32,000 nucleotides of DNA from an uncultured Actinomycetes bacterium (GTDB lineage Bacteria; Actinomycetota; Thermoleophilia; RBG-16-64-13). Numbering within the stretch: the first letter of the stretch is position 1; each line of letters starts with the position of its first letter. The position numbers and the translations under genes were made by a program. Shown piece by piece: positions 5,525-32,000 of the stretch. The notes beneath the pieces are model-generated. The model did no database searches. It worked only from the letters and a program-made list of their open reading frames with translations, and was not told the DNA's origin. Location: contig CAWASM010000002.1 of NCBI GenBank assembly GCA_963784835.1, positions 272,076 to 304,075 on the forward strand. Reading direction: 5' to 3'.

Positions 5525-7276
5525 GTGGAGACTGGGCTCACAAGCGGTTGGCACATGTCGCGCGGGGGCGCAACGTACGGTCCCTACGAATGGAACGACC
5601 TGGTCGCCTGGGCGCAGGGAGGGCGACTCGCCCCCGGAGACCTCGTCTGGCAGGCGCAGCTTCCTGGTTGGATGCCGGCCGGGAAGGTGCCGGGATTGTT
5701 CCCGGCCTGGTCCGACGCTCTGGTTCCCGCGTATGGACAATCCCAGAGGATATCCTCACACCGGGGACGATGGGCGCTCATAGCCGGGCTGTCCACGCTT
5801 GTCGTGGCGGGAGCGGTGGTGGGGGTGCTCTTCGCGGCCGGGGTCTTCTCCAAGCAGTCCGTGGTGGTCGAGACTCCCATGCAGGGCCCCACGGTCATCG
5901 ACGTTCCCTATGACTCCTCGGAGCTGGTGGTTTCGCCTGAGGATGGAGGGCAGCTCGAGTTTCAAGGCGCCCAGATCTCTGTCCCGCCGGGCGCGGTAGC
6001 TTCGGACGCGACGCTGGAGGTCAAGGTACTGCCGGATGACTTCAACGTGAGTCCGACGGCTTCGCCAGAGGATGAGTTCTTCGCGGTCGGCCCCGTGGTG
6101 GACTTCGGGCCCGCGGGAACCGCCTTCGACCAGCCGGTGACGGTCACCGTGCCCTACGACGAGGGTCTCCTGCCGGCCGGTATTCCAGAAGAAAACGTGG
6201 CTTTGGTCTACTGGGATGGGTCGGCCTGGGTCACGGTGCAGGGCACGGTCGACACGAGCAGGAACACCGTCACCGCCCAACTTCGGGAGTTCGACGGGGT
6301 AGTTCTCACGACCGTCGCAGCGCTCGTATTGGTGCCAGTCGCGGTGGGGATGTGGGTCTACAAACTGACCAGGAGCGACCCCATCATCGATGGGAAAGCG
6401 GACACGTACATCATCCCCGACAACTCCACGGTCAAACAGATGGCCCAGACCAGCACGTGCGGCGGCGTTTCCCTTGCCAACCAGCAAGCACTTGCCCAGC
6501 ACATGGAGAGTCTGCAGACCCCGACACCGCAGAAGCTCGCCTTCACCAAGCCCGACGGGACACAAATCCAAATGAACGAGGGCGAGCACTACGACGCGGG
6601 TGCCGGCACCAACTGGCAGATGCCGAACGCCTTCTTCGACAAGAACATGAAGGGGGACTGCACAGACGTGACCAATGCCATGGTGAGCGTGTTCCGGTCG
6701 CTCGGGTATGAGGCCAGGGGAGTATTCGGATATGAGACTGATCCCACTACGAAGGCGCAAGACCCGCACGCGTGGGGAGAAGTGCTGATAGGCGGCAAGG
6801 TCTACCTGATCGACGAGCAGGGGCAAGTGTCACCGCGTGAGCGGGCCATGGAACTGCAGCACTTGGAGCGGCCCAAACCGGAGGACGCTCGGTACAAGAT
6901 GTGGGACGACGTCAATCACGTGCAAAAGCAAGATCCCGACTGGTACAAGCGGTACCTCACCAGCACGACTACCAGCACGACCGCCGGCATCGACGCCATG
7001 GCCATAAACGGCACTTGGGTAGGCCAGGCGAGCAACGGGACAGCAGTCGATGATGTCAATCTCGTCATAAGTGTCTCAGAGGGGGGCACCGGAAGCGCCA
7101 CGGCGACGTGGAAGGACCCACGGTACTCGCCGATGCAAGCGATGGTGGTAATCAACGGGGACGTGGTTGAAATAGGATTCCAGGACATGACCCAGTTGTC
7201 TGGAAACTTTACCGGTGGCAATACCCTAACCCTGTCGGGCCCGTCGACAACGTGGAAGCTCACGCGGGTACAGTGA
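5525..7276 (+). CDS. Membrane protein with a GYF_2-like N-terminus, two TM helices flanking a ~190-aa domain, a transglutaminase-like cysteine protease core and a C-terminal beta-rich domain
   Basis: GTG 5525 lies 5 nt after GGGAGGA. 'GWHMSRGGATYGPYEWNDLVAWAQGGRLAPGDLVWQAQLPGWMPAGKVPGL' fits the GYF_2/DUF4339 pattern. The TMs are 'WALIAGLSTLVVAGAVVGVLFAAGVF' and 'VVLTTVAALVLVPVAVGMWVY'. The Cys-His-Asp context is 'GDCTDVTNAMVSVFRSLGYEARGV...DPHAWGEVLIGGKVYLIDEQG'. Confidence 0.8.
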   Translation: METGLTSGWHMSRGGATYGPYEWNDLVAWAQGGRLAPGDLVWQAQLPGWMPAGKVPGLFPAWSDALVPAYGQSQRISSHRGRWALIAGLSTLVVAGAVVGVLFAAGVFSKQSVVVETPMQGPTVIDVPYDSSELVVSPEDGGQLEFQGAQISVPPGAVASDATLEVKVLPDDFNVSPTASPEDEFFAVGPVVDFGPAGTAFDQPVTVTVPYDEGLLPAGIPEENVALVYWDGSAWVTVQGTVDTSRNTVTAQLREFDGVVLTTVAALVLVPVAVGMWVYKLTRSDPIIDGKADTYIIPDNSTVKQMAQTSTCGGVSLANQQALAQHMESLQTPTPQKLAFTKPDGTQIQMNEGEHYDAGAGTNWQMPNAFFDKNMKGDCTDVTNAMVSVFRSLGYEARGVFGYETDPTTKAQDPHAWGEVLIGGKVYLIDEQGQVSPRERAMELQHLERPKPEDARYKMWDDVNHVQKQDPDWYKRYLTSTTTSTTAGIDAMAINGTWVGQASNGTAVDDVNLVISVSEGGTGSATATWKDPRYSPMQAMVVINGDVVEIGFQDMTQLSGNFTGGNTLTLSGPSTTWKLTRVQ

Positions 7277-13085: not shown

Positions 13086-14048
13086 CACCTTCACGATACC
13101 AACTTCTCTCTCAGGACCTCATACGGAGTCAGCCCCTTAAGCCCGGCGTGAGGCCGGTGGACGTTGTAGAACTCCTCCCAGACCGCGAGCTTCTCCGTGA
13201 GGTCGACGTCGTCGGTGTACTCAAGGAGCTGATAGAACTCGAGCTGATCGGTGAGGTGAGAGCGCTCGACCTTGCCGTTGAGGTTCGGGCTCCCCGGCTT
13301 GATGTAGGTGTGCTTCATGCCCTGGTCCTCCACATGCCAATGGAACTTGGCCTGGAACTCGTGGCCGTTGTCGGTCCGCACGGTGTGGATGCGGAAGGGG
13401 AAACGCTCCACGACGTGGTCGATGAAGTCGATGGCGCTCTCCTGGTTGTGTTTGTTATAGACCTTGAGAGCGCGGATGCGGGTGGCGTCGTCCACGGCGG
13501 TGAACTGGTAGCGCTGCACCTTGCGGCCGGCCGGATCCACGAACTTCAGGAACTTCACGTCCACCTGCACGTGGTGGCCGGGCATCTGCTTCTCGTAGCG
13601 CTTGCTCATGATCGAGCGAGTGCGACAGTTGGCCGGCAGCCGGCTGAGACCATTCCGGGTGAGCACGCGGTGGACCCCGCTCGCCGAGATGCCTATCCCG
13701 TGATAGCGCTCCAGGTACCAGGCGATCCGCCGCGGTCCGAAGTGATAGTTACGGCGTAGGTGAAGGATCTTCTCCTCGACGGGGGCCGGCGTGCGTAGGG
13801 CCACATTCTGCGGGCAGGGCTTCTTGTTCACGAGACCCGTCTCGCCATGTTTCTCGTAGGCTCGCTTCCAGATGTAGAAGCACTGCCGTGAGATCCCGAA
13901 ATGGCGGCAGGCGAGCGATACGTTGCCTGACTCTTCGGCGTACCTAAATACGGCCAGCTTGCGCCTGATGTCCCTCTCAGCTTTCGTCACCTAACAACCT
14001 CCGATTGACTCTCGCTACTCTATAGCTTGTGTCAACCAAGGTCGTGGA
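13069..14048 (-). mobile_element. IS481-family insertion sequence
   Basis: Terminal inverted repeats are ACGACCTCGGTTGACAC (13072-13088) and GTGTCAACCAAGGTCGT (14029-14045), matching at 16 of 17 positions. They flank a single DDE transposase ORF. I could not identify a target-site duplication. Confidence 0.8.
13091..13990 (-). CDS. IS481-family DDE transposase (rve integrase core)
   Basis: Intact 299-aa ORF. It has an N-terminal HTH ('ACRHFGISRQCFYIWKRAY'), 'HVQVDVKFL...FTAVDDATR...VRTDNGHEF' (the DDE context) and 'FYNVHRPHAGL'. Confidence 0.9.
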   Translation of the reverse strand: MTKAERDIRRKLAVFRYAEESGNVSLACRHFGISRQCFYIWKRAYEKHGETGLVNKKPCPQNVALRTPAPVEEKILHLRRNYHFGPRRIAWYLERYHGIGISASGVHRVLTRNGLSRLPANCRTRSIMSKRYEKQMPGHHVQVDVKFLKFVDPAGRKVQRYQFTAVDDATRIRALKVYNKHNQESAIDFIDHVVERFPFRIHTVRTDNGHEFQAKFHWHVEDQGMKHTYIKPGSPNLNGKVERSHLTDQLEFYQLLEYTDDVDLTEKLAVWEEFYNVHRPHAGLKGLTPYEVLREKLVS

Positions 14049-15887: not shown

Positions 15888-17237
15888 CTACAGAGCGACC
15901 ACGCGGAACGCTCTCACGTTCATCTGTCCCGAGGCATATATGCCGACTGTCCCGGCCTCCAGCTGGCGGTTGTCCGTCGCCCTCACTACCTCGGCACCGT
16001 CAAACAGTAGCCGGATGGAGTTTCCATATACCTCGAGCCGGTAGGTATGCCAGTTGCCATCGTCCACGTATTTCGCGCTGGAGAGCATCTCCGAGGCGAA
16101 TCCCGCCCGCACTGAGCAATCCGATTTGTAGTAACCCCCCTTGTAGCCGCCCCAGTACCCTTCGCCGTTGATCAGTCTGGCCTCCAGGTAGAAGCTGCCT
16201 TTGCTGGGGTCGATCACCTGCATCTCCGCTTCCACCGCGTAGTCGGTCAGGGTTCCCAGGGTTACCGGGGCGACTGAAATGGACTGCTGGGTCCCATCTG
16301 ATACCAGCATGCCGTCCACAATCTTCCATTGGCCCATCTTCGTCCAGCCATCAGCGCTCGGCGTCCACTCGCTCTTGTCGTAGAGCACTGTGCCGGGGGT
16401 GACGACGGCCTGAGTGGTGGTCGTGGTGGATGAGGAGGTGGTGGTGGATGAGGTAGTGGAGGAGGAGGTAGTGGTCACCTCAGTGATAGTCGTGGTCGTC
16501 GCAAGGTCATTCGTAGTCGCCGGCAAGCCGGTAGTATGAGAAGACTCTGCCATGGCGGCCGCGGAGATGCTGCTGCTGACCGTGGTGCCCCCATCAGTTC
16601 CGCCGGCCTTTCCGCCCCCATACAGCATGACCGCGAACACGATGGCCGCGATCACCACCATGGCTCCGGCCCCAAGACCGACCAGACCCAAGGGACGCCT
16701 ATACCATCGTCGGGAGCCCTCGACTGTGCCTCTGGGTGGCGGTGTTTTCACCGTCTCCGCACGGGAGGCGGTCACGGTAATCGGTGTGTGCACCCGGGCT
16801 ACGGGCTCTACCCCTGGCGAGGCAGCACTCCCATCTCTCGCTAGGAGTAGCTGTACCGTGTCGGTTAAGTGCTCGAGGTGCCTCTCCAGCGGTGGAGTGA
16901 TCGCATCCAGCCAGTGCGTGCTGCTTATGTAGTATTCCATTGCCGCGCTGGGGGCCACGTGTTCGACCCGGAAAGGCAGTATGGGGATCGCCCTGCTCGC
17001 CGCCCTCTCAACCTCCCTCACCACATGGGGAGAGTTGTTCGATCTGGAAGAGAACACCAAGACCATGAGCGCGGCATCGCTGATAGCCTTGATGAGCTGT
17101 TCGGCATAGTCGCGGCCGGGTAGGACGTCGCGCGGGGCGACCCAGCAGCGCACATGCTTCGCCTCCAGGGCAGCGGACACCGCGTCCGCCACGGGCTTGT
17201 CCTCAGACGAGTAGCTGATAAAGACATCGTGCGCCAC
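15888..17237 (-). CDS. TIR-domain protein: N-terminal TIR, one TM helix, Ser/Thr-rich linker, C-terminal concanavalin-A-like (DUF1080/LamG-like) domain
   Basis: GTG 17237 lies 7 nt after GAGGGGG. 'HDVFISYSSEDKPVADAVSAALEAKHVRCWVAPRDVLPGRDYAEQLIKAISDAALMVLVFSSRSNNSPHVVREVERA' fits the TIR_2 pattern. The TM is 'LGLVGLGAGAMVVIAAIVFAVMLY'. The C-terminal 172 aa are paralogous to 14467-14985. Confidence 0.85.
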   Translation of the reverse strand: MAHDVFISYSSEDKPVADAVSAALEAKHVRCWVAPRDVLPGRDYAEQLIKAISDAALMVLVFSSRSNNSPHVVREVERAASRAIPILPFRVEHVAPSAAMEYYISSTHWLDAITPPLERHLEHLTDTVQLLLARDGSAASPGVEPVARVHTPITVTASRAETVKTPPPRGTVEGSRRWYRRPLGLVGLGAGAMVVIAAIVFAVMLYGGGKAGGTDGGTTVSSSISAAAMAESSHTTGLPATTNDLATTTTITEVTTTSSSTTSSTTTSSSTTTTTQAVVTPGTVLYDKSEWTPSADGWTKMGQWKIVDGMLVSDGTQQSISVAPVTLGTLTDYAVEAEMQVIDPSKGSFYLEARLINGEGYWGGYKGGYYKSDCSVRAGFASEMLSSAKYVDDGNWHTYRLEVYGNSIRLLFDGAEVVRATDNRQLEAGTVGIYASGQMNVRAFRVVAL

Positions 17238-17405
17238 CGATACGCCCCCTCTTTCACACACCGATGATCGTGGGCAACTGGACTATAACACGGTGGACTC
17301 CGGAGAAGTCGAGCCCAAAACTGACCACCCCTAAATCACCCGCTACGTGGCCCAGATCGAGATGACCTTGCCTCGGCAGGCACGGTCCACCCCGGCCTCT
17401 CCCCC

Positions 17406-18617: not shown

Positions 18618-18840
18618 CCGCTGTGAACGGGAAGTATAGCACGACGCCCACGCCAGCGACGGCAAAGGCCCTGCCAACCTACTCCCTTGGTCCCATCGCA
18701 ACCCCGCCTTCAACGCGCTATCATCGCGCGGCCCCGGAAAAGGGGGGAATGCAGGCGGATTGGCGAATGGCGCTAAGTGCTTCGCCATTCTTGCCGATAA
18801 ATCCACGGAGAGGACAAAGCCAGAAGCCGTGAGAGCGTTG

Positions 18841-20052
18841 ATGCATCGAGTCCGGTCAAGCCGCGAACGTTCCTGCACCGCCGCCATCGGGCGCGCGCGG
18901 GTGATGGGTCGTGCCTGGCTGTGGATCGGCGGCGTGTTGCTCTTCGCCGGAGTCCTTCTCTTCTGTTCCCTCCCCGCCTCCGTGCAGGCCGTTCCCGACG
19001 ATTCCAAGCCCCTCCGCCTCTTCGGCGAAGTCAAGACCCAGGTAGACGACCTCACCCTCCAAGCGCAGTTCGTGCAGGCCGACATCGACTCCCTGGACGA
19101 CCAGCTGGAGCAGGCGTCCGAGACCTACAACCGCTTGCAGGTGCAACTGGACGAGTTGAACATCTCCATGAACACCATGCGCCGGCAACTGCAGGCCGCT
19201 CAGGACGACCGAGCCTACCGGCTGGAGAAGTACGAGAGCCGCGTCTGTGACCTCTACAAGGACGGGGGAAACAACGAGTTCTTGGACCTGCTCCTCTCGG
19301 CCAAGGACGGGCCGGACTTCCTGTCCCGGGTGCGGCTGGCTGCCAACCAGGCCGACGAAGACCAGCGCCTGGTAGCGAAGCTCGCGGAGAGCACCGCGAA
19401 GATGAACACCATCCTCGCCAGTATGGATGCGGCCAAGCTCCAGGAGGTCGATATCCGCCGGCAGATGAGCGACCAACGGGAGGGCATCCAGGCGGCGCTC
19501 GAGGCGCGGAAGGCCACCCTGGCCGATCTGGACACCCAGCTCTCCACCGTCATCGAGCAAGAGCGAGCGAGGCAGGCGGAGGAGCAGACCAGGCTGCAGG
19601 CCGCCCTGCAGGCCCTGATCAACGGCGGACAGGTCTACGACGGACCGCTCCCACAGACCGACAGCGAGATAATCAACCAGCTCCTCGAGACCGCGGCCAC
19701 CTACATCGGTATTCCCTACGTGTGGGCCGGCGACCGCCCGTCCACCGGGATGGACTGCTCCGGCTTCACCCGTTTCGTCTACGGCCAGCATGGGGTGGCC
19801 CTGCCGCACTTCTCCGGATATCAGGCCGAGATGGGCATCCCCGTGGACTATGTCGACATGCAGGCCGGTGACCTGGTGGCCTTCGGCTTCCCGGTGCACC
19901 ACGTGGGCATCTACATCGGCGACGACCTCTTCATAGAGGCGCCCAGGACGGGAGATGTCATCAAGATCTCGCGGCTGAGCGCACATGGCAACCTGGCCGC
20001 CATCCGCCGGTTCGACATCCAGCCTCGCATCGGACCGCCCGCCATCTACTAG
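18841..20052 (+). CDS. Secreted NlpC/P60 (C40) peptidoglycan endopeptidase with a long N-terminal coiled coil (RipA-like architecture)
   Basis: 'GIPYVWAGDRPSTGMDCSGFTRFVYGQHG...GDLVAF...HHVGIYIGDDLFIEAPRTGDVIKIS' gives the Cys/His catalytic context. The signal-like segment is 'WLWIGGVLLFAGVLLFCSLPASVQA'. The start is uncertain (ATG 18841 or 18904). Confidence 0.85.
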   Translation: MHRVRSSRERSCTAAIGRARVMGRAWLWIGGVLLFAGVLLFCSLPASVQAVPDDSKPLRLFGEVKTQVDDLTLQAQFVQADIDSLDDQLEQASETYNRLQVQLDELNISMNTMRRQLQAAQDDRAYRLEKYESRVCDLYKDGGNNEFLDLLLSAKDGPDFLSRVRLAANQADEDQRLVAKLAESTAKMNTILASMDAAKLQEVDIRRQMSDQREGIQAALEARKATLADLDTQLSTVIEQERARQAEEQTRLQAALQALINGGQVYDGPLPQTDSEIINQLLETAATYIGIPYVWAGDRPSTGMDCSGFTRFVYGQHGVALPHFSGYQAEMGIPVDYVDMQAGDLVAFGFPVHHVGIYIGDDLFIEAPRTGDVIKISRLSAHGNLAAIRRFDIQPRIGPPAIY

Positions 20053-20102
20053 GGCAGCATCGGCCCCCCACTCCACCCAGCCCGCGAGCGGCGGTCTCGG
20101 GG

Positions 20103-20117
20103 TAGAATAGGCGCATG
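20103..20117 (+). promoter_or_regulatory. Possible -10 box (TAGAAT) placed for a leaderless transcript
   Basis: TAGAAT at 20103-20108 lies 6 nt upstream of ATG 20115, and there is no Shine-Dalgarno sequence. Confidence 0.3.
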
Positions 20118-20431
20118 TCGCCTGCCATGATCATCATGATCGTTCTTATCTGTCTCGGCTTTGCGCTCTTCCTCGCCGGGTTGGTCATCTTGGCCATCAA
20201 GGCCGTCGGTCTCCTCAAGGCCGGCCGCCGGTCGGGCATCTCCTCCAGGGCTCACGTGCGGAGGTCATACGCCGCAGCCAGGCCATCGCCCCCAAGGCGC
20301 GTGCGCTTGCCGCCAAACAGAAAGTCGTGGCCGAAACGCTCAAGAGCGTTTCGGCCACGACCAACGAGTTCAGCTCACTCAAAGACGAGATCGACCGCGC
20401 TACCGGTCGCCTCACCGGGCTGAAGTCCTAG
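20115..20431 (+). CDS. Small membrane-anchored coiled-coil protein, function unknown. One frameshift near 20255.
   Basis: The N-terminal TM is 'MIIMIVLICLGFALFLAGLVILAI'. The tail 'EVIRRSQAIAPKARALAAKQKVVAETLKSVSATTNEFSSLKDEIDRATGRLTGLKS*' is in another frame. Span is 3n-1. Confidence 0.5.
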
Positions 20432-25158: not shown

Positions 25159-26054
25159 CCGACCCCCTTGCGCCAGCGCATCACCCGACGCCTGAGGGGG
25201 CGCAGCACGCCGAACTCCAGCAGAGCCATCAGCGCTAGAAGCAACACGATCCAGGCGAAGAGTCCCGGGGTGTCGAGGTTGCTCATCGCTCGGGAGAAAG
25301 AATGTCCTATACCGCTCATGGCCGCGAGGACCTCAGCCAGAACCACCGCCCTTACCCCGATGCCCGTGGCCAGGGTCAAACCGGCCAGCGCGGGCGACGC
25401 GGTACCCGGCAGGTAGATCTCGGTGAGCATGAGCCGCCGGGGATAGTGATAGACGCGGCCCATCTCCACCAGCCGGGGATCGAGGTTGAGCACGCCGGCC
25501 AGGGTGTTGATGTACATGGTGGGCACCACGATGAGCGCGACGGTGAAGATCACCGTAAAGTCGCCCAGGCCGAACCACACCATGGCCAACCCCACGATGA
25601 TGATGGCCGGGATGGTCATGCCCACCCAGCGAAGAGGCTCCAGGAACGAGCGCAGCCGCGGTCCGAGGCCGGCCAGCAGGCCGAAGACCCAGCCCAGCCC
25701 CACGCCGATGGCAAGGCCGATGACCAGGCGCTTGAGCGTGATGAGGAGTTGGATCCAGAGCGTCCCGTGAGCGGCCAAGCTGCCCAGCGCCTTGGCTGTC
25801 TCGACAGGCGAGGCAACAAACACTTCGCTGACCCAGAGGGAGAGGAGTTCCCAGCCTAGCAGGAGAGCGGCCGTCCCCAGAGCGGCGTAGAGGAGGCGGG
25901 TGCGGCGCGAAACGGGGCCGGGAGGTGCGGGCTGCCCACCGGGCTTCAGGCCCGGCGCGGTGCGGCGCCGCGAAGCGGTGCCGCGCGGCCCGGCGGGGTC
26001 TTTCGACCCCGCCGGATCCGGTGAGTGCTTATGGGGCGTAGTAGAAACCATCAT
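25155..26054 (-). CDS. ABC transporter permease (BPD_transp_1 type, NitT/TauT-like)
   Basis: Intact ORF with a Pro-rich N-terminal extension and then about 6 TMs. The EAA-like loop lies around 'EMGRVYHYPRRLMLTEIYLPG'. Confidence 0.85.
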   Translation of the reverse strand: MMVSTTPHKHSPDPAGSKDPAGPRGTASRRRTAPGLKPGGQPAPPGPVSRRTRLLYAALGTAALLLGWELLSLWVSEVFVASPVETAKALGSLAAHGTLWIQLLITLKRLVIGLAIGVGLGWVFGLLAGLGPRLRSFLEPLRWVGMTIPAIIIVGLAMVWFGLGDFTVIFTVALIVVPTMYINTLAGVLNLDPRLVEMGRVYHYPRRLMLTEIYLPGTASPALAGLTLATGIGVRAVVLAEVLAAMSGIGHSFSRAMSNLDTPGLFAWIVLLLALMALLEFGVLRPLRRRVMRWRKGVG

Positions 26055-27139
26055 CGGGCAGTTTCCCGCCGATGACCTCTGGTGACAACTCCATCAGCGC
26101 CGTGTAGAAGGCGGCCAGACTGGCCTTGGCCTCGAGAGCGGGGGTGTACTTCCAGGTGATGCCCTTGAGCGCGGCGGTCATCACCGGGGCTTTGAGTCCC
26201 AGATCGGGCAGTTCGGTCTCCACCAACTGGCCGGCCGCCTCGGGGTTGGCCAGCATCCACTCGACGGCGGCCGCGTATTCGCGCTGGAAGGCGGCGATCG
26301 ACGTCCGGCCTGCCCAGGACGTTGGGGGTGGCCACCGTGCCCGCGATGGGGCTTGTGGCGCCGGGGCCGGCCGCGGTCTCCCAGGCCTTGTCGAAGGCCA
26401 GGACCTTGCGGAGCGGCTTTTCGGCGTCCTTGGTCTGCAGCACCACTGCCGTAGCCAGGGCCTCGCTCAGCACTGCGTTGTCAACCTGGCCCGACACCAG
26501 CAGTTGGGCCGCCTGGGTGGGGTCGGCGGCGTAGCGCAGCTTGAAGTCCTTGACCGGGTCGAGGCCTTCCTTCTTGACGATGTACTGGAAGGTCACGTCG
26601 GGCACGCTGCCCTGGAACGGGACCACCAGCGACTGCCCCTTGATATCGGTGAAGTCGGCGGCAGCCGGATCGCGCGTGACCAGATAGGTGATGTTCCACA
26701 CCGAGATGTCCAGCAACTGCAACGGGAGGCCCTTGTTGTAGAAGATAGCCGCGGTGTTGGAGGGCACGGTGACGAAGTCGCCCTGCTTTCCTGCCACGAT
26801 GGCCTTGAGCTGGTCGGGGTTCTCCCAGATCACCAGGTCGGTCTCATCGGCCACGCCGGCCAGTTTGTTGTTGACCTTCAGGTAGGCCATGGGTATGGCC
26901 ATCGGTCCGGGCGGAGCCACCAGGGTGAGCTTGTCGAGCTTCGCCAGGCTGGTAGTGGTCGCCGCCTCGCTGGTGCTGGTGATCGGCGCCGCCGTGGTCG
27001 GCGTCGCGGTGGTGACCGTGGTCTCAGGACCGGCCGAACCACATCCTGCCACGAACAGGAGCCCGCACGCCAGCAGCACTGCCAGGAGCAGGGCAAGTGA
27101 GCTCGAACGCCCGTCTGATGGCCTCGTCACTTGATGCAT
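26029..27139 (-). CDS. ABC substrate-binding lipoprotein (NMT1/THI5-like, NitT/TauT family). One frameshift near 26300.
   Basis: ATG 27139. Lipobox 'LFVAGCGS' followed by a Thr-rich linker. The body is in ORF 26051-27316 and the C-terminus 'SIAAFQREYAAAVEWMLANPEAAGQLV...' is in the frame of ORF 26029-26256. Span is 3n+1. Confidence 0.8.
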
Positions 27140-27224
27140 AGTCGTCTTGCCTTTCCGTCTCAGTAACACGTCGCCGGGTGTTCGGTGCACTACGTTTCGG
27201 AGAGTCAGGGCTCTACCCCGGCGC

Positions 27225-27473
27225 CTACTCTGCGAAGTCCATCCTCTGGAGGCCCACGCCCTTGAGTCCCTTGAGCTCGAGATAGAACTCCTCTGCTTCG
27301 GCGCCGAAGACATCAACCAGCACCAGGCCGCTGGGGGAGCAACTGGTGGCGTCGGCGTCGTGGATGCCCAGCCGGGTGCGGATGTTGCAGCCGTACTTCG
27401 TCAGGGTGGACTGCAGCGCGGGGACGTTCTCGACGCGATTTGTGATGTGGATACCGAAGATGGTGTGCTTCAT
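27225..27473 (-). CDS. TM1266-like small ACT-fold protein (the family annotated as putative iron-only hydrogenase system regulator)
   Basis: ATG 27473 lies 3 nt after GAGGAGGAG. The 82-aa product 'MKHTIFGIHITNRVENVPALQSTLTKYGCNIRTRLGIHD...GLVLVDVFG...LKGLKGVGLQRM' has the layout I recall for that family. Confidence 0.6.
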   Translation of the reverse strand: MKHTIFGIHITNRVENVPALQSTLTKYGCNIRTRLGIHDADATSCSPSGLVLVDVFGAEAEEFYLELKGLKGVGLQRMDFAE

Positions 27474-27518
27474 GTCTCCTCCTCTGGCTCCGATGCTTAG
27501 AAACAACCCCATTGTACA

Positions 27519-27580
27519 TTGACCTTTGCTACCCGAGGGCGTAACTTGTGAAACACGTAACGGTGTTATCTGTGTAACGA
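27519..27580 (+). promoter_or_regulatory. Putative rex promoter with Rex-box-like elements
   Basis: TTGACC (27519-27524), 17 nt, TAACTT (27542-27547). A TTGTGAA half-site lies at 27546-27552. The inverted repeat TGTTA-n6-TAAC at 27564-27578 resembles the TGTGA-n6-TCACA Rex operator core. GTAAC occurs three times (27541, 27557, 27574). Confidence 0.3.
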
Positions 27581-28737
27581 TGCTGCGATGGGACGGGGCG
27601 GAGCGCGTGACAGTGGGAACAAAGCCGGGAGTATCCCGCAAGACGGTGGGCAGGCTCAGCCTCTACCGCCGGCTGCTCGACAACCTCTCGGAATCCGGCA
27701 CCACCAGCATCTTCTCCCACCAGCTGGCCCACCTAGCGGGAGTCAGCGCCACCCAAGTGAGGCGCGACTTCATGGTGATCGGCTACTCGGGTAGCCCCAA
27801 CCGTGGCTATCAGGTGGACACCTGCCTGGACGCCATCTCCAGCCTCCTCGACGGCTGCACGCGCCAGGATGTGGTTCTTGTGGGGCTGGGCCGGCTGGGC
27901 AGGTCGGTGCTCGCCCACTTTGCCGGCCGCCGCCCGCTGCTGCGCATCGCGGCGGGCTTCGACACCGACCCGGCTACTATCGGGACCTCCGTCGAGGGCT
28001 GTCCGGTGCACGGCATGCAAGACCTGGAACCCATTGTCAAGGCCAAGGGCATCCGCATCGCCATCCTGGCAGTGCCGCCCGAGACCGCGCAGACCGCTGC
28101 TGAGGCCTTGGTGCGCGCGGGCGTGCGAAGCATCGTGGACTTCACAGCCATCCCCCTGCAGGTGCCCGAGGACGTGTTCGTGGACCATATGGACATCACT
28201 TCGGCGCTGGAATCGGCCGCCTTCTTCGCCCGCCAGGAACAGATCCCAGGAGACACGGGCGCCGGCGTCGAGAACGGCGTGGAGAACGGTGGCGAGGCCG
28301 AGATGGACCCCATGATCCACACCATCGACGCCTTGCTGGAAGAGGCTCACTTAGGGCTCCAAGAGCTCGCTGCCAAGATCGGCGCCCGGGTCCTCACGCC
28401 TCACCCCGAGACCGCGGGCGAGGTGACGCGCATCTACGCCGGCGACCGGGTGAGCGACCTCCTCAACGAGGCCTCCGACAAGACCCTGCTGGTAACCAAT
28501 CTGGCCAACCTACAGATGTTGCGGGTGGCTGAACTGATGGAGGTCCCCGGCATCTGCTTCGTCGACGGGGTCGACCCGGGACCGGACATAGTGGACCTAG
28601 CCGCCGAAGACGGCACGTTGCTCATGGTGTCGCCCTTGGGCGTCTTCGAGACCTGCGGTCTGATATACCAATTGCTCGCCGGTGAAGCGCCTTCTCCCGA
28701 GGCTCGCCCTCTCGAAGCCCGGGATGAGCGGGGCTGA
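27580..28737 (+). CDS. rex: Redox-sensing repressor Rex fused in frame to a C-terminal DRTGG domain
   Basis: The Rex part is 'GRLSLYRRLLDNL...SHQLAHLAGVSATQVRRDFMVIGYSGSPNRGYQV...VVLVGLGRLGRSVLAHF...FDTDP...IAILAVPPETAQ'. The linker is 'IPGDTGAGVENGVENGGEAE'. The DRTGG part is 'IYAGDRVSDLLNEASDKTLLVTNLANLQMLRVAELMEVPGICFVDG'. The start is uncertain (ATG 27580 or GTG 27607). Confidence 0.8.
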   Translation: MLRWDGAERVTVGTKPGVSRKTVGRLSLYRRLLDNLSESGTTSIFSHQLAHLAGVSATQVRRDFMVIGYSGSPNRGYQVDTCLDAISSLLDGCTRQDVVLVGLGRLGRSVLAHFAGRRPLLRIAAGFDTDPATIGTSVEGCPVHGMQDLEPIVKAKGIRIAILAVPPETAQTAAEALVRAGVRSIVDFTAIPLQVPEDVFVDHMDITSALESAAFFARQEQIPGDTGAGVENGVENGGEAEMDPMIHTIDALLEEAHLGLQELAAKIGARVLTPHPETAGEVTRIYAGDRVSDLLNEASDKTLLVTNLANLQMLRVAELMEVPGICFVDGVDPGPDIVDLAAEDGTLLMVSPLGVFETCGLIYQLLAGEAPSPEARPLEARDERG

Positions 28738-30439
28738 CCTCCCCACTATCATGGAATTCTTGTCATACGACATAGAGAGCAACGACTTCCGCCGGGCGGG
28801 AGCCGCGTCGCGCGCCATCAAGGAGCACCTGAAGCGCATCGGGGCCGAGGCCGAAGCTATCCGCCGCACCATGATCGCCGCCTATGAGGCCGAGATGAAC
28901 GTGGTAATACACTCCACCGGCGGCCGGTTGGAGGCTTGTCTTTCGGAGTCCCAGATAGACGTGAACGTGGTGGACGGGGGCCCGGGCATCCCCGACGTGG
29001 AGCAGGCCATGGTGGAGGGGTTCTCCACGGCCGGCGCCGAAGCCCGCGCCTTGGGTTTTGGGGCGGGGATGGGCCTACCCAATATCAAGCGCAGCAGCGA
29101 TCGTCTGCGCGTGACCTCGCGGATGGGAGAAGGCACCCGGGTGAGCTTCACGGTCTATCTGCAACCGGAGAGCACCGACGGGAAGCGGCCCATCTCGCTC
29201 TACGCCTCTGCCGACCGCTGCCGCGACTGCCGGGCGTGCTTGACTGCCTGCCCCACCCAAGCCATGCGCGTGCGCGACGGGCGTCCAAGCGTACTCGAAC
29301 ACCTCTGCATAGACTGCGCGGCCTGCATAGCAGCCTGCACCAGCGCGGCGCTGACCATGCGTGACGATGTCTCCAGTCTGGAAGCGCTGCCCGACAAGCA
29401 AGACATGCTGCTGGTGGTGCCGCCGGCTCTGCTGGCCGGTTGCGGCGGGGACTATCCGCCGGCACAGGTGCTGGCCGCATTGCAGGGCCTGGGCTTTGCC
29501 GGGGTGATCACCTCGGAGCCATACGAACTGGCGCTGCTCGCTGCGGTGGGCAAGGCCCCGGCCGAGGGCGCAACCGGCGGCAAGGCCCGTCCCCGGCCTC
29601 TCATCTCGCCCTCGTGCCCGGCGATCGTGAACCTGGTAGAACTGCGCTTCCCCTCGCTGGTGCCCCATCTCGCCCCCTTCGATTCGCCCTGGGAGGCGGT
29701 GCAGGCAGCATACGGCGACCGGCCGGTCGCCTACGTGGTCTCGTGCCCCAGCCAGCGCTCCGCCCTGCTCCTGCAGACGCAAGGCACGGCCGCGGGCGCG
29801 TCCGCCGAATGCTTGACGCCCGGCACACTCCGCCAAGCCGTCATGATGAAGCTGACCGGTGGGGCAAGCCCCGAACCGGAGTCGCACAGCGAGACCGCCT
29901 CGAGCCCCCTCCCCACGCACACCGGTGCGATGCCGGCGGGCACCGCCGGTGACGATACACTTCTGACGGTCACCGGCATCGCGCACGTCATAGCGGTACT
30001 GGAGCAGATCGAGAACGGCCTGCTGGGCGACGTGGCCGCCATCGACCCGTATGCCTGCGCAGGCGGGTGTTTCGGCTCCCCGCTTCTGTTCGAAGACCAC
30101 CACGTAGCCGCCCACCGTTGGGAACGCGGCCGGGCGGCGGTCGAAGCCGCCGAGGCGGCGGGCGCCTCCGGCGCCGTTCCCGCGCCGGCCCCGCAGCCGC
30201 GCCGGCGGCCCTTCGGCGCCCGGCCGGGCATCCGCCTGGATGCCGACATGGGCAAGGCCATCCAGAAGCTGGGCCACTTGCAGCAGGTCATCCACTCACT
30301 GCCGGGCAGGGACTGCGGCACCTGCGGCGCCCCCACCTGCGCAGCCTTGGCCGAAGACGTAGTCATGCAACGGGCCGGCATCGAACTGTGCCCTTACACT
30401 GCCCGTACGAACGGAGAGAAGGAGGACCGCGACCGATGA
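28724..30439 (+). CDS. Multidomain Fe-S protein: GHKL/HATPase_c (RsbW-like) module, 2x[4Fe-4S] ferredoxin, [FeFe]-hydrogenase large-subunit-like domain, and a C-terminal CxxCGxxxC Fe-S domain
   Basis: HATPase boxes: 'EAEMNVVIH', 'VVDGGPGIP', 'GFGAGMGLPNI'. Ferredoxin: 'CRDCRACLTACP' and 'CIDCAACIAAC'. HydA-like motifs: 'SPSCPAIV', 'VVSCPSQ', 'ACAGGCFGSP'. C-terminus: 'GRDCGTCGAPTCAALAED'. The start is uncertain (ATG 28724 overlapping the rex stop, or ATG 28751). Confidence 0.8.
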   Translation: MSGADLPTIMEFLSYDIESNDFRRAGAASRAIKEHLKRIGAEAEAIRRTMIAAYEAEMNVVIHSTGGRLEACLSESQIDVNVVDGGPGIPDVEQAMVEGFSTAGAEARALGFGAGMGLPNIKRSSDRLRVTSRMGEGTRVSFTVYLQPESTDGKRPISLYASADRCRDCRACLTACPTQAMRVRDGRPSVLEHLCIDCAACIAACTSAALTMRDDVSSLEALPDKQDMLLVVPPALLAGCGGDYPPAQVLAALQGLGFAGVITSEPYELALLAAVGKAPAEGATGGKARPRPLISPSCPAIVNLVELRFPSLVPHLAPFDSPWEAVQAAYGDRPVAYVVSCPSQRSALLLQTQGTAAGASAECLTPGTLRQAVMMKLTGGASPEPESHSETASSPLPTHTGAMPAGTAGDDTLLTVTGIAHVIAVLEQIENGLLGDVAAIDPYACAGGCFGSPLLFEDHHVAAHRWERGRAAVEAAEAAGASGAVPAPAPQPRRRPFGARPGIRLDADMGKAIQKLGHLQQVIHSLPGRDCGTCGAPTCAALAEDVVMQRAGIELCPYTARTNGEKEDRDR

Positions 30440-30837
30440 GACTGCAAGAGCTGGCTCAAGTCCTTGATCTCCAGGCGCTCACACCCGGCCTCGATCGACC
30501 GGGCGATGAAACCGGCGCCTCCGCGGGCGTCGAAACCAGCACAACCGCACTTGACGCCGACATCACCCGGGCCTACGCCTCCGACCTACTTAGCGACGTG
30601 CTGGCCAACGCCCCCTCTGGGGGGATCTTGATAACCATACAAGTGCACCTCAACGTCATCGCCGTGGCCAGCCACGCCGGGCTGCACGGAGTGATCTTCG
30701 CGTGCGGGCGGACTCCCGAGCCCGACGTCATCGGGAGGGCGGCCGAGGAGGGCCTTGCGCTCTACGTGTCCGGCGCAGATACGTTCGACCTGGCCGGCCG
30801 CCTCTACGAGTTGGGCGTCAGAGGGAGCGGCGCATGA
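30436..30837 (+). CDS. DRTGG-domain protein
   Basis: ATGA overlap with the upstream stop. 'AYASDLLSDVLANAPSGGILITIQVHLNVIAVASHAGLHGVIFACGRTPEPDVIGRAAEEGLALYVSGADTFDLAGRLYELG' matches the DRTGG proteins found in hydrogenase-linked clusters. Confidence 0.8.
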   Translation: MRLQELAQVLDLQALTPGLDRPGDETGASAGVETSTTALDADITRAYASDLLSDVLANAPSGGILITIQVHLNVIAVASHAGLHGVIFACGRTPEPDVIGRAAEEGLALYVSGADTFDLAGRLYELGVRGSGA

Positions 30838-31675
30838 CCGGCGCCCCCACTGTGAAGTCCCCCCGGGAAGGATGCCATGCTTGAGCGCCGCGTCCACAGC
30901 CGGGTCCTCCCCCCTGGGCGCACACCTGCGCACGTTCCGGGCCGATCTGCACATCCACTCGGCGCTCTCGCCCTGCGGGTCGGAAGAGATGACTCCTCCG
31001 GTCATCGTGCGGAACGCTCTGGAGGCGGGGCTTGACATGATCGCCATCTCCGACCATAACTCCGCGGGCAACGTGGCGGCCGTCCAGCAGGCGGCCGAAG
31101 CTGCCGGCGGCGGTCTCACCGTATTGCCCGGAATGGAGATCGCCTCCGTGGAAGAGGTGCACGTGCTTGGCTTGTTCCCCGACCTGCCGGCCGCCGAGAG
31201 CGTGGCCGCCACGCTGAGCGGCCTGCTGCCTCAGGCCGACGATGGTTACTACTCGTTCTTCGGGGAACAGCACCTGCTCACCGCCGACGGCCGCGTCTCC
31301 GGACAGGAGACAGTCGAACTGGCGAGCGCCACCCCCCTCGACCTCAACGAGGCGGTAGAGCTAATCCACAGCCGGGGCGGCCTGGCCATCGCAGCCCATG
31401 TGGACCGAAAGGCCTTCAGCGTCTTCTCTCAACTGGGGTTCTTCCCCGAAGACGCGGGCTTCGACGGCATCGAGGTCTCGCGTCACTTCTCTCCGACCTC
31501 TACTCTGCTCGACACTCCCGCCCTCCGCGGCCTGCCTGTCACCGGCGCCTCCGACGCGCACTACCCGGACGACATCGGGGCGGCCACCACCCTACTACGG
31601 CTGGCCGAGCCCTCGTTCGCCGAGCTGCTGCTGGCCTTCTCCGGAGCCCAAGAACGGAGCGTGGCTCGTGCATGA
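30834..31675 (+). CDS. PHP-domain metal-dependent phosphoesterase. Probable frameshift at the C-run 30859-30864.
   Basis: 'ADLHIHSALSPCG', 'AISDHNS', 'PGMEI', 'AIAAHVDR' and 'GASDAH' are the PHP motifs. ATG 30834 overlaps the DRTGG stop (ATGA) but is in another frame until the C6 run. The in-frame alternative start is ATG 30872. Span is 3n-1. Confidence 0.75.
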
Positions 31676-32000
31676 CCTGTCGCTCTATCTACTTGAGGTG
31701 CTCGAGAACTCGGTGCGCGCCGGTGCGGCGCATGTAGACACGGCGCTGTTCGTGGATCAAGGCTCCGACACGCTTCGGCTCACCGTCGACGACGACGGCA
31801 GCGGCCTATCCTCCACCCCCGAGCAGACTCTCGACCCCTTCTACACCACCAAGCCCGGCAAGAAGACCGGTCTGGGCCTCAGCCTGCTGAAAGCCGAGGC
31901 CCAGGCGGCCGGCGGCGATCTGCTCATCGGGCCTTCGCCGGCGCTGGGAGGCGTGCGGGTACAGACCTTCATGCGCCTGAGCCATGTGGACCGCCCCCCG
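31668..32000 (+). CDS. GHKL/HATPase_c-type ATP-binding protein (partial, runs off the right edge)
   Basis: GTG 31668 overlaps the PHP stop. 'LLEVLENSVRAGA' is the N box, 'VDDDGSGL' is G1, and 'DPFYTTKPGKKTGLGLSLLK' covers G2. There is no stop before the window end, which is why it is absent from the ORF track. Confidence 0.75.
   Translation, partial: MHDLSLYLLEVLENSVRAGAAHVDTALFVDQGSDTLRLTVDDDGSGLSSTPEQTLDPFYTTKPGKKTGLGLSLLKAEAQAAGGDLLIGPSPALGGVRVQTFMRLSHVDRPP

Follow-up and report, generated by a model that had tools for sequence, protein, structure and literature searches.

Fused Rex-DRTGG and GHKL-HydS proteins at the head of a putative [FeFe]-hydrogenase operon of Thermoleophilia suggest a second input to Rex

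Rex is usually regarded as sensing nothing but NADH/NAD+. The locus analyzed here, in which Rex is continuous with a DRTGG domain and a GHKL ATPase is continuous with a hydrogenase-like Fe-S protein (HydS), raises the question of whether a Rex repressor could receive an additional signal through such fusions. It occupies positions 27225-32000 of a 32,000-nt stretch of DNA from an uncultured Actinomycetes bacterium, the whole of which is called the window below and has a G+C content of 62-69%. Domain and fold searches agree with the gene order proposed in an initial annotation made from the sequence alone, and all open reading frames (ORFs) were found where that annotation had placed them: a small CPF_0552/TM1266-like gene on the minus strand is followed on the plus strand by Rex+DRTGG, GHKL+HydS, DRTGG, PHP, and GHKL. 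The best explanation for this arrangement is that the locus forms the 5' half, the regulatory one, of an operon for an [FeFe]-hydrogenase in an uncultured soil bacterium, whose relatives are labelled as Thermoleophilia and related Actinomycetota.

The initial annotation had warned that either fusion might be an artefact of a lost stop codon. We scanned for relatives with one genome per species, which identified 289, and classified the stop-to-stop ORFs by BLAST in the best 80 loci, which come from Actinomycetota, Planctomycetota, and Hydrogenedentota. Rex and its appended DRTGG domain (DRTGG1) are located in a single ORF in 61 of the 64 informative Actinomycetota loci, and GHKL and HydS are fused in 80 of the 80 best species-level genomes, spanning three phyla. 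The three exceptions for Rex are all MFD-series long-read metagenome-assembled genomes (MAGs). A natural split in these three loci was considered and rejected: two are frameshifted inside Rex, leaving the Rex C terminus and DRTGG1 in one frame, and in the third (L016) the break falls within the linker. At the protein level, we found more than 100 Rex-DRTGG clusters of 350-400 aa with at least 88% query coverage and 65-92% identity, originating from JGI, ENA, NCBI, and Logan assemblies, with Thermoleophilia MAGs as the named members, as well as at least 120 full-length GHKL-HydS clusters with 56-92% identity. No stop codon separates the domains in any of the full-length clusters.

The closest relative, L082, is a 6.8-kb contig of a Logan assembly from a separate soil metagenome run. 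It is 92.2% identical to the window over 27219-32000 with five gaps, all of them frame-neutral, and its gene calls match those of the window. Contigs from another run with at least 99% identity span 28606-28810 and 28930-29170 without gaps. The runs searched for the identical strain did not yield any such contig over 28220-28320, the cover at 99% or more being limited to the two intervals above. The indel load of the assembly, to which the initial annotation had pointed, is visible as at least one probable indel, near 26298 in a neighboring substrate-binding-protein gene, but not at the fusion junctions. This indel and the three related long-read MAGs with frameshifts in or just past Rex are what can be said for the idea that one or both fusions result from a stop or frame lost in an indel-prone assembly. 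Against it, hundreds of independent assemblies carry the same ORFs without interruption, the 92% contig has only frame-neutral indels across both junctions, and the nearly identical contigs are gap-free over both covered intervals. We consider the probability of an artefact negligible. Both fusions are evidently lineage-wide architectures; the domains that had been described as usually separate genes are indeed separate in other lineages but fused throughout the lineage here.

The Rex-DRTGG protein (27607..28737, plus strand, 376 aa) consists of a Rex module (~27634-28242), a linker (~28243-28317), and a DRTGG domain (~28318-28686). Its ORF is open from 27526 and contains an ATG at 27580, which had been taken as the start. 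The N termini of homologues favor instead the GTG at 27607, giving the same length as in the 92% relative. The Rex part was expected to align with Rex profiles and passed the curated thresholds, scoring 186 bits with NCBIfam NF003995 against a cutoff of 126, likewise exceeding the cutoffs of NF003996 and NF003994, and matching PF06971 (winged helix; E = 3.9e-14) and PF02629 (E = 4.1e-14). It aligns with residues 9-207 of the 215 residues of Bacillus subtilis Rex (E = 1.7e-34). Therefore, the Rex module is complete, and the extension starts where a normal Rex ends. The GLGRLG sequence of the Rossmann NAD(H) domain is invariant among 34 aligned homologues. An ordinary Rex comprises two domains within about 210 aa with nothing appended, whereas this protein has 376 residues and a C-terminal DRTGG domain. 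Database sources label the homologues plainly as "Rex" without calling any DRTGG domain.

An AlphaFold model of Rex-DRTGG built from the 34 homologues has a mean predicted local distance difference test score (pLDDT) of 76. The first ~205 modelled residues superimpose on eight solved Rex proteins (Foldseek probability 1.0, TM-score ~0.77), and the last ~120 residues superimpose on the solved DRTGG domains 3L2B and 3L31 with a root-mean-square deviation of 2.2-3.0 Å over 115-124 columns; the TM-score of DRTGG1 against 2IOJ is 0.76. The sequence match of DRTGG1 to PF07085 reaches 17.1 bits with a cutoff of 25.2. DRTGG1 exceeds the Rex part in invariant columns per residue among the 34 homologues (YAGDRVSDLL...TLLVTNL...FETCG), with the motif YAGDRVSDLL being invariant. 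Linker residues 222-246 are acidic and Gly-rich and predicted to be disordered (pLDDT <50). The linker varies in both length and sequence among the 34 homologues and is interrupted in none. At 28245-28253 within the linker, we noticed a +1/-1 indel pair 7 nt apart relative to the 92%-identical contigs, which changes two to three codons (PGD versus CGS) while leaving the ORF continuous; this could be real variation or a pair of sequencing errors.

The GHKL-HydS protein (28751..30439, plus strand, 562 aa) carries, according to profile searches, an HATPase_c_2/HATPase_c domain, two Fer4 motifs, a partial Fe_hyd_lg_C domain, and the FeS domain PF04060, and the same searches gave no match to a PAS domain. 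The GHKL domain (GHKL1) lies at ~28751-29167, the two [4Fe-4S] motifs at ~29201-29368, the H-domain-like part at ~29396-30103, and a C-terminal Cx2Cx4Cx16C motif, reading CGTCGAPTC-x16-C, at ~30314-30391. The ORF runs from stop to stop over 28682-30439, and homologue N termini favor the ATG at 28751 ("MEF...") over the ATG at 28724 used in the initial annotation. GHKL1 matches PF13581 (E = 8e-9) and TIGR01925 (E = 3.7e-12), and its N, G1, and G2 ATP-binding boxes are invariant. In a structure model of the protein (pLDDT 68), GHKL1 is predicted to have the fold of SpoIIAB as found in the complex with SpoIIAA (1TIL_E, TM-score 0.81), and the remainder resembles [FeFe]-hydrogenases over 370-430 columns.

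All 16 cysteine residues of GHKL-HydS are invariant in 18 homologues. The position of the proton-relay Cys299 is occupied by Ser (SPSCPA). Group D proteins lack Cys299 and have Ser or Thr in place of Met353. The L2 motif reads VVSCPSQR, in which the equivalent of Met353 is Val or Ser depending on the register, and stand-alone relatives have (T/V)PCxAK. An exhaustive search identified 2775 relatives of the HydS part. Of the best 150 representatives, 51 begin with a GHKL domain and have a median length of 525 aa, whereas 67 stand alone at full length, with a median of 439 aa and an identity of 27-43%. From these sequence features, we describe the HydS part as a degenerate member of the kinship of the group D (M2e) putative sensory [FeFe]-hydrogenases, and the fused clade is more degenerate than the stand-alone clade. 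This description is preferable to the label "HydA-like" of the initial annotation. Database sources call the homologues "ATP-binding protein".

The typical Rex box is the palindrome TTGTGAA-N4-TTCACAA. An alignment of 20 intergenic regions upstream of Rex-DRTGG revealed only four conserved blocks: TTGAC, GTAnnT 17 nt further on, and two Rex boxes. In the window, they correspond to a putative promoter (27519..27547, plus strand) with the -35 element TTGACC (27519-27524), a 17-nt spacer, and the -10 element TAACTT (27542-27547), and to the predicted box 1 (27546..27563, plus strand), TTGTGAAACACGTAACGG, which overlaps the -10 element and scores 24.2 bits. The predicted box 2 (27563..27580, minus strand), reading TCGTTACACAGATAACAC and scoring 17.0 bits, is arranged in tandem with box 1, and this second box is kept in close relatives. 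The scores are from a matrix built with orthologous sites that include the window's own sequence. Outside the Rex intergenic region, the best score in the whole 32-kb window was 8.9 bits, and the matrix scan found no further strong Rex box inside the gene clusters. A single Rex-box region with none inside the clusters fits one operon.

At the orthologous position in about 65 loci, the best consensus match lies upstream of Rex-DRTGG. Distant relatives have near-perfect boxes, TTGTGAATCGATTCACAG and CTGTGAATCACTTCACAA, as compared with TTGTGAAACACGTAACGG in the window's clade. A scan with the generic Rex-box consensus allowing three mismatches found no more sites than expected by chance, and an E. 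coli-type promoter scan did not flag the promoter; the Rex site is convincing because of the orthologous comparison. The layout suggests a classic autorepressed promoter and one Rex-controlled transcript that would run into the hydrogenase genes.

Downstream of GHKL-HydS, a free-standing DRTGG paralogue (DRTGG2; 30436..30837, plus strand, 133 aa) is present in nearly all loci whose contigs extend that far. It scores 18.3-20.3 bits against PF07085 and so stays below the cutoff of 25.2. The motif Y..D..SD.L..A, including its Ser-Asp pair, is invariant and common to DRTGG1 and DRTGG2 in 76-80 loci. The following gene (30872..31675, plus strand, 267 aa) encodes a PHP-family metal-dependent phosphoesterase matching PF02811 and PF13263 (PHP, PHP_C) and the PDB phosphoesterases 7UG9 and 3E0F, and its orthologue in the 92% relative also has 267 aa. 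PHP enzymes are phosphoesterases. The last gene encodes a second GHKL ATPase (GHKL2; 31668..32000, plus strand; PF02518, E = 1.3e-10) of the histidine-kinase type without a DHp domain, of which the N-terminal 111 aa are within the window. Of these residues, 108 of 111 are identical to the start of a 369-aa HATPase_c plus 2Fe-2S_thioredx protein in L082, so the truncated ORF probably continues as a fusion of GHKL2 with a NuoE-like HydC.

The hydrogenase structural genes, which had been predicted to lie beyond the right edge, are indeed found in relatives. In L082, PHP is followed by the 369-aa fusion of GHKL with HydC/NuoE [2Fe-2S], a HydD/HndB-like protein of 125 aa, and the start of HydB/NuoF. 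More distant syntenic loci contain NuoF (with a GltD-like Pyr_redox_2 protein), a group A HydA, a response regulator, and a hydrogenase-like histidine kinase, the HydA of distant relatives having Fe_hyd_lg_C (E = 5e-97) and a small-subunit domain. The GHKL2-HydC fusion occurs in L082 (4697-5806) and also in L002, L004, L006, L017, L022, L025, L029, and L062, and the two are separate in most others. In L001 (16200-18661) and most of the loci L002-L081, HydB/NuoF has a Fer4_20 domain, and a GltD/NfnB-like Pyr_redox_2 protein is either fused to it or encoded beside it, which suggests that this variant of HydABC has an additional flavoprotein module linked to NAD(P)H. After HydA, most relatives, among them L001 (20503-21080), encode a response regulator as well as a group-C-like sensor kinase, a hydrogenase-like protein with HisKA and HATPase_c domains, so the operon seems to hold a second, separate hydrogenase-based sensing system. 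The P1 motif of the L001 HydA (18661-20430) reads TSCSPGW in the alignment, for which we would presume TSCCPGW.

The components of the locus have also been combined in other ways. In 11 loci from Planctomycetota and Hydrogenedentota, a DRTGG1 orthologue with 50-55% identity heads the same operon as a protein of its own; none of these 11 loci has Rex upstream of it, and the upstream gene is HydF-like where examined. Because DRTGG1 stands free at the same operon position without Rex, Rex was grafted onto a pre-existing module. A DRTGG domain occurs at the N terminus of a stand-alone-type sensor in P0354, whose cluster has a member encoded by a gut isolate, and at the C terminus in P0303, P0317, and P0353, the cluster of the last including a member from a Bacillota MAG. 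The DRTGG domains of P0354 and P0303 pass the Pfam threshold. The gut isolate "bacterium 210820-DFI.6.37" (L084, 4941-8955) encodes GHKL, a 109-aa protein, PHP, GHKL, DRTGG-HydS, and a [2Fe-2S] protein. L083 (6558-8266) has a split GHKL and HydS pair with overlapping stop and start. In these two loci, components of the module are located away from the hydrogenase structural genes. The survey of fused and split versions proposed with the initial annotation thus returned fused GHKL-HydS in every one of the best genomes, and split or other fusions in L083, L084, and the Bacillota MAG. By sequence, gene fusions link Rex with DRTGG, DRTGG with the sensor, the sensor with GHKL1, and GHKL2 with HydC, and thereby offer candidate pairings among these proteins.

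Taking the locus as a whole, we regard a Rex-controlled hydrogenase operon with a partner-switch second input to Rex as somewhat probable. Transcription would start from the promoter with its -10 element under the two tandem Rex boxes. The Rex module would repress its own operon at low NADH and release it as NADH rises, as expected from established Rex behavior, so that reducing power could be disposed of as H2. The hydrogenase-like Fe-S domain, which keeps all cluster cysteines but has a remodelled diiron pocket, might report H2 or the ferredoxin/Fe-S redox state to the fused SpoIIAB-like GHKL1 kinase. The kinase would bind and/or phosphorylate the DRTGG domains, for which the invariant Ser in the common Y..D..SD.L motif is the candidate target. 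The PHP phosphoesterase could reset the state, and free DRTGG2 could compete with Rex-tethered DRTGG1. DRTGG1 is joined to the end of the dimer-swapped C-terminal helix of Rex, where the second signal may alter operator binding or sequester Rex. The operon would then answer to the NADH/NAD+ ratio plus the H2/redox state. The domains, the existence and conservation of the fusions, the synteny with hydrogenase genes, and the operator footprint are observed here; we infer who binds or phosphorylates whom, what signal HydS detects, and in which direction Rex is affected. The further gene fusions lend support to the partner-switch idea. Its most specific form is proposed only tentatively: a SpoIIAB-like kinase would be under the control of the degenerate hydrogenase domain, DRTGG would take the place of STAS as switch partner or phospho-acceptor and PHP that of PP2C as phosphatase, and Rex would be the direct, covalent output.

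Several observations weigh against this proposal. Both DRTGG sequence matches are below the Pfam threshold, and we know of no demonstrated phospho-acceptor role for DRTGG. In the fused clade, Fe_hyd_lg_C matches only positions 24-105 of 245 (3-245 in stand-alone relatives), Gln occupies the equivalent position of Lys358, and a variable low-complexity insert takes the place of the group A F417-V423 (Phe417) loop, at which stand-alone sensors have W-x-x-x-GG-E. With a partial H-domain, this Gln, and the lost loop, HydS may not bind a diiron subcluster and hence may not sense H2. The right half-site of the operator is degenerate in the window's clade (GTAACG versus TTCACA). The same module exists without Rex in Planctomycetota, and therefore its ancestral target was not Rex. 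Moreover, the fusion of GHKL2 to HydC hints that the enzyme is acted upon, and not transcription. For CBS-pyrophosphatases and SpxR, the literature assigns DRTGG a regulatory role, perhaps through ligand binding (PMC9888711), and the C-terminal cluster of TamHydS, a group D protein, was unresponsive to H2 (PMC13104023).

Some of these observations would be accommodated by other explanations. The DRTGG domain on Rex could be an independent ligand-binding or oligomerisation domain for adenine nucleotides or another metabolite, tuning Rex directly, upon which the neighboring proteins do not act. This is how DRTGG appears in nucleotide-regulated CBS-pyrophosphatases and, as a ligand-binding domain, in the transcription factor SpxR (PMC9888711), and the fold of DRTGG1 matches the DRTGG domain of a CBS-pyrophosphatase. 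However, DRTGG1 is always directly upstream of GHKL-HydS, DRTGG2, and PHP, with or without Rex, and DRTGG is fused to HydS in other lineages. Proteins without any interaction would hardly be expected to stay so closely linked, and we find this explanation doubtful. Alternatively, the set of DRTGG, GHKL, PHP, and HydS could control or assemble the enzyme post-translationally, for example, by gating HydABC via HydC, without any signal to Rex, in which case the Rex fusion would only ensure co-expression or co-localisation. The GHKL2-HydC fusion in the closest relative and several other loci is in line with such a role, as are the module lacking Rex in Planctomycetota and, in L083 and L084, its location at a distance from hydrogenase genes. 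Yet it does not readily account for a covalent fusion kept over 65-92% divergence with DRTGG having more invariant columns per residue than Rex, which argues that Rex function depends on the domain in some way, nor for the SpoIIAB-like character of GHKL1, a class known for regulatory partner switching. We judge a purely post-translational role to be unlikely.

If the partner-switch input to Rex is correct in the specific form given above, one repressor would integrate the NADH/NAD+ ratio with H2 or the ferredoxin redox state, and signalling partners of group D hydrogenases would be identified. Both group C and group D [FeFe]-hydrogenases go by the name "sensory". The papers on TamHydS state that the partners of group D are still unknown, and a study from 2026 calls their identification the critical next step (PMC13104023). 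The fusions suggest the pairings sensor with GHKL kinase, sensor with DRTGG, DRTGG with Rex, and GHKL with HydC. They also provide an output, namely the binding of Rex to a defined, predicted operator, and would add a second input to Rex. In addition, they place hydrogenase-associated DRTGG and PHP proteins in a regulatory setting for the first time. The components are of known kinds, and the fused architectures are widespread in public data. In full-text searches, covering Creative Commons-licensed PMC articles and bioRxiv only, no paper turned up that connects DRTGG to hydrogenases or to Rex, or that describes either fusion. Even if the mechanistic proposals are wrong, the locus is a clean, well-conserved regulatory head of a Thermoleophilia hydrogenase operon.

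The junctions between the genes are less uniform than initially described, when all plus-strand genes were held to overlap. Two overlaps are clear: the ATGA between HydS and DRTGG2 at 30436, and the 8 nt between the GTG start of GHKL2 at 31668 and the TGA of PHP ending at 31675. The ATG at 31672 is not the start of GHKL2, since its frame runs into a stop after 21 codons. Between DRTGG2 and PHP lies a 34-nt gap with a ribosome-binding site GGGAAGG before the ATG at 30872. The GHKL-HydS start at 28751 is 13 nt past the upstream stop, so that this junction likely has no overlap; the alternative ATG at 28724 would overlap by 14 nt.

The small divergent gene (27225..27474, minus strand, 82 aa) had been called TM1266-like, which is weakly supported: PF21699 ("TM1266-like") gave E = 0.036 and 14.4 bits with a cutoff of 27, and a PDB sequence search with the protein found no match, TM1266 included. 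It belongs more closely with the CPF_0552 family (NCBIfam NF052672), to which it scores 81.5 bits, just under the cutoff of 85. About 20 close relatives likewise have the gene in this place and orientation, and it has a common promoter/operator region with the Rex gene. Next to it, the gene for an NMT1-type ABC substrate-binding protein (26029-27316, minus strand) contains the frame change mentioned above, near 26298-26300; residues 54-266 of the L001 orthologue correspond to frame -2 and residues 267-353 to frame -3, indicating an assembly indel or a pseudogene. Elsewhere in the window, we noticed an rve-family integrase/transposase (13091-13990, minus strand), a TIR-domain protein fused to a 3-keto-disaccharide-hydrolase-like domain (15888-17261, minus strand), and a GYF_2-ZU5-transglutaminase protein (5525-7276, plus strand).

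How does this locus compare with known systems? The Rex module is 32-36% identical to solved Rex proteins and shares with Rex of S. coelicolor, B. subtilis, T. aquaticus, and T. maritima the winged helix, the Rossmann domain with GLGRLG, and the swapped C-terminal helix. As in other Rex systems, a Rex-box operator covers its own promoter upstream of fermentation or hydrogenase genes. Unlike in ordinary Rex, a linker of ~25 aa and a DRTGG domain of ~125 aa continue past the usual end, and the right half-site of the operator has drifted to GTAAC in the window's clade.

The partner-switch modules SpoIIAB/SpoIIAA/SpoIIE and RsbW/RsbV/RsbU are similar in the fold of GHKL1 (TM-score 0.81 to 1TIL) with intact ATP boxes, and in the layout of kinase, antagonist, and phosphatase, here GHKL1, a small alpha/beta domain that is encoded twice, and a phosphoesterase. 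In contrast to these modules, DRTGG, PHP, and Rex stand in place of STAS, PP2C, and the sigma factor, none of which was found in the window or its syntenic counterparts, and a repressor would serve as the output.

In common with the group C HydS proteins (R. albus HydS and T. saccharolyticum HfsB), of which that of R. albus presumably has a rex gene nearby, there is a hydrogenase-like sensor proposed to signal H2 via a protein kinase. For group C, which has a Ser/Thr kinase and a phosphatase next to the sensor, the proposal is that the H2 signal travels by way of the kinase to control fermentation and hydrogenase genes (PMC5707799). Those systems use PAS and a separate PP2C phosphatase, whereas here PAS is absent, the kinase-like domain is fused, and Rex is tied in via DRTGG. 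Relatives of the locus also encode a separate group-C-like HydS-histidine kinase and a response regulator downstream of HydA.

The closest counterpart of the HydS part is group D (M2e), represented by TamHydS of Thermoanaerobacter mathranii (PMC8163306, PMC13104023), which likewise has two N-terminal [4Fe-4S] motifs, the four cubane cysteines, a replaced Cys299 (Ser here), a C-terminal Cx2Cx4Cx16C motif, and no PAS domain. Both are encoded ahead of a hydrogenase of the HydABC type and have a histidine-kinase-like ATPase as neighbor; in the syntenic relatives including L082, the genes of a multimeric group A hydrogenase lie downstream of the sensor, and the window ends before those genes. Our protein differs from group D in that the ATPase is fused at the N terminus, the H-domain is more degenerate, Gln is present at Lys358, and a variable insert replaces the W/F-x-x-x-GG loop.

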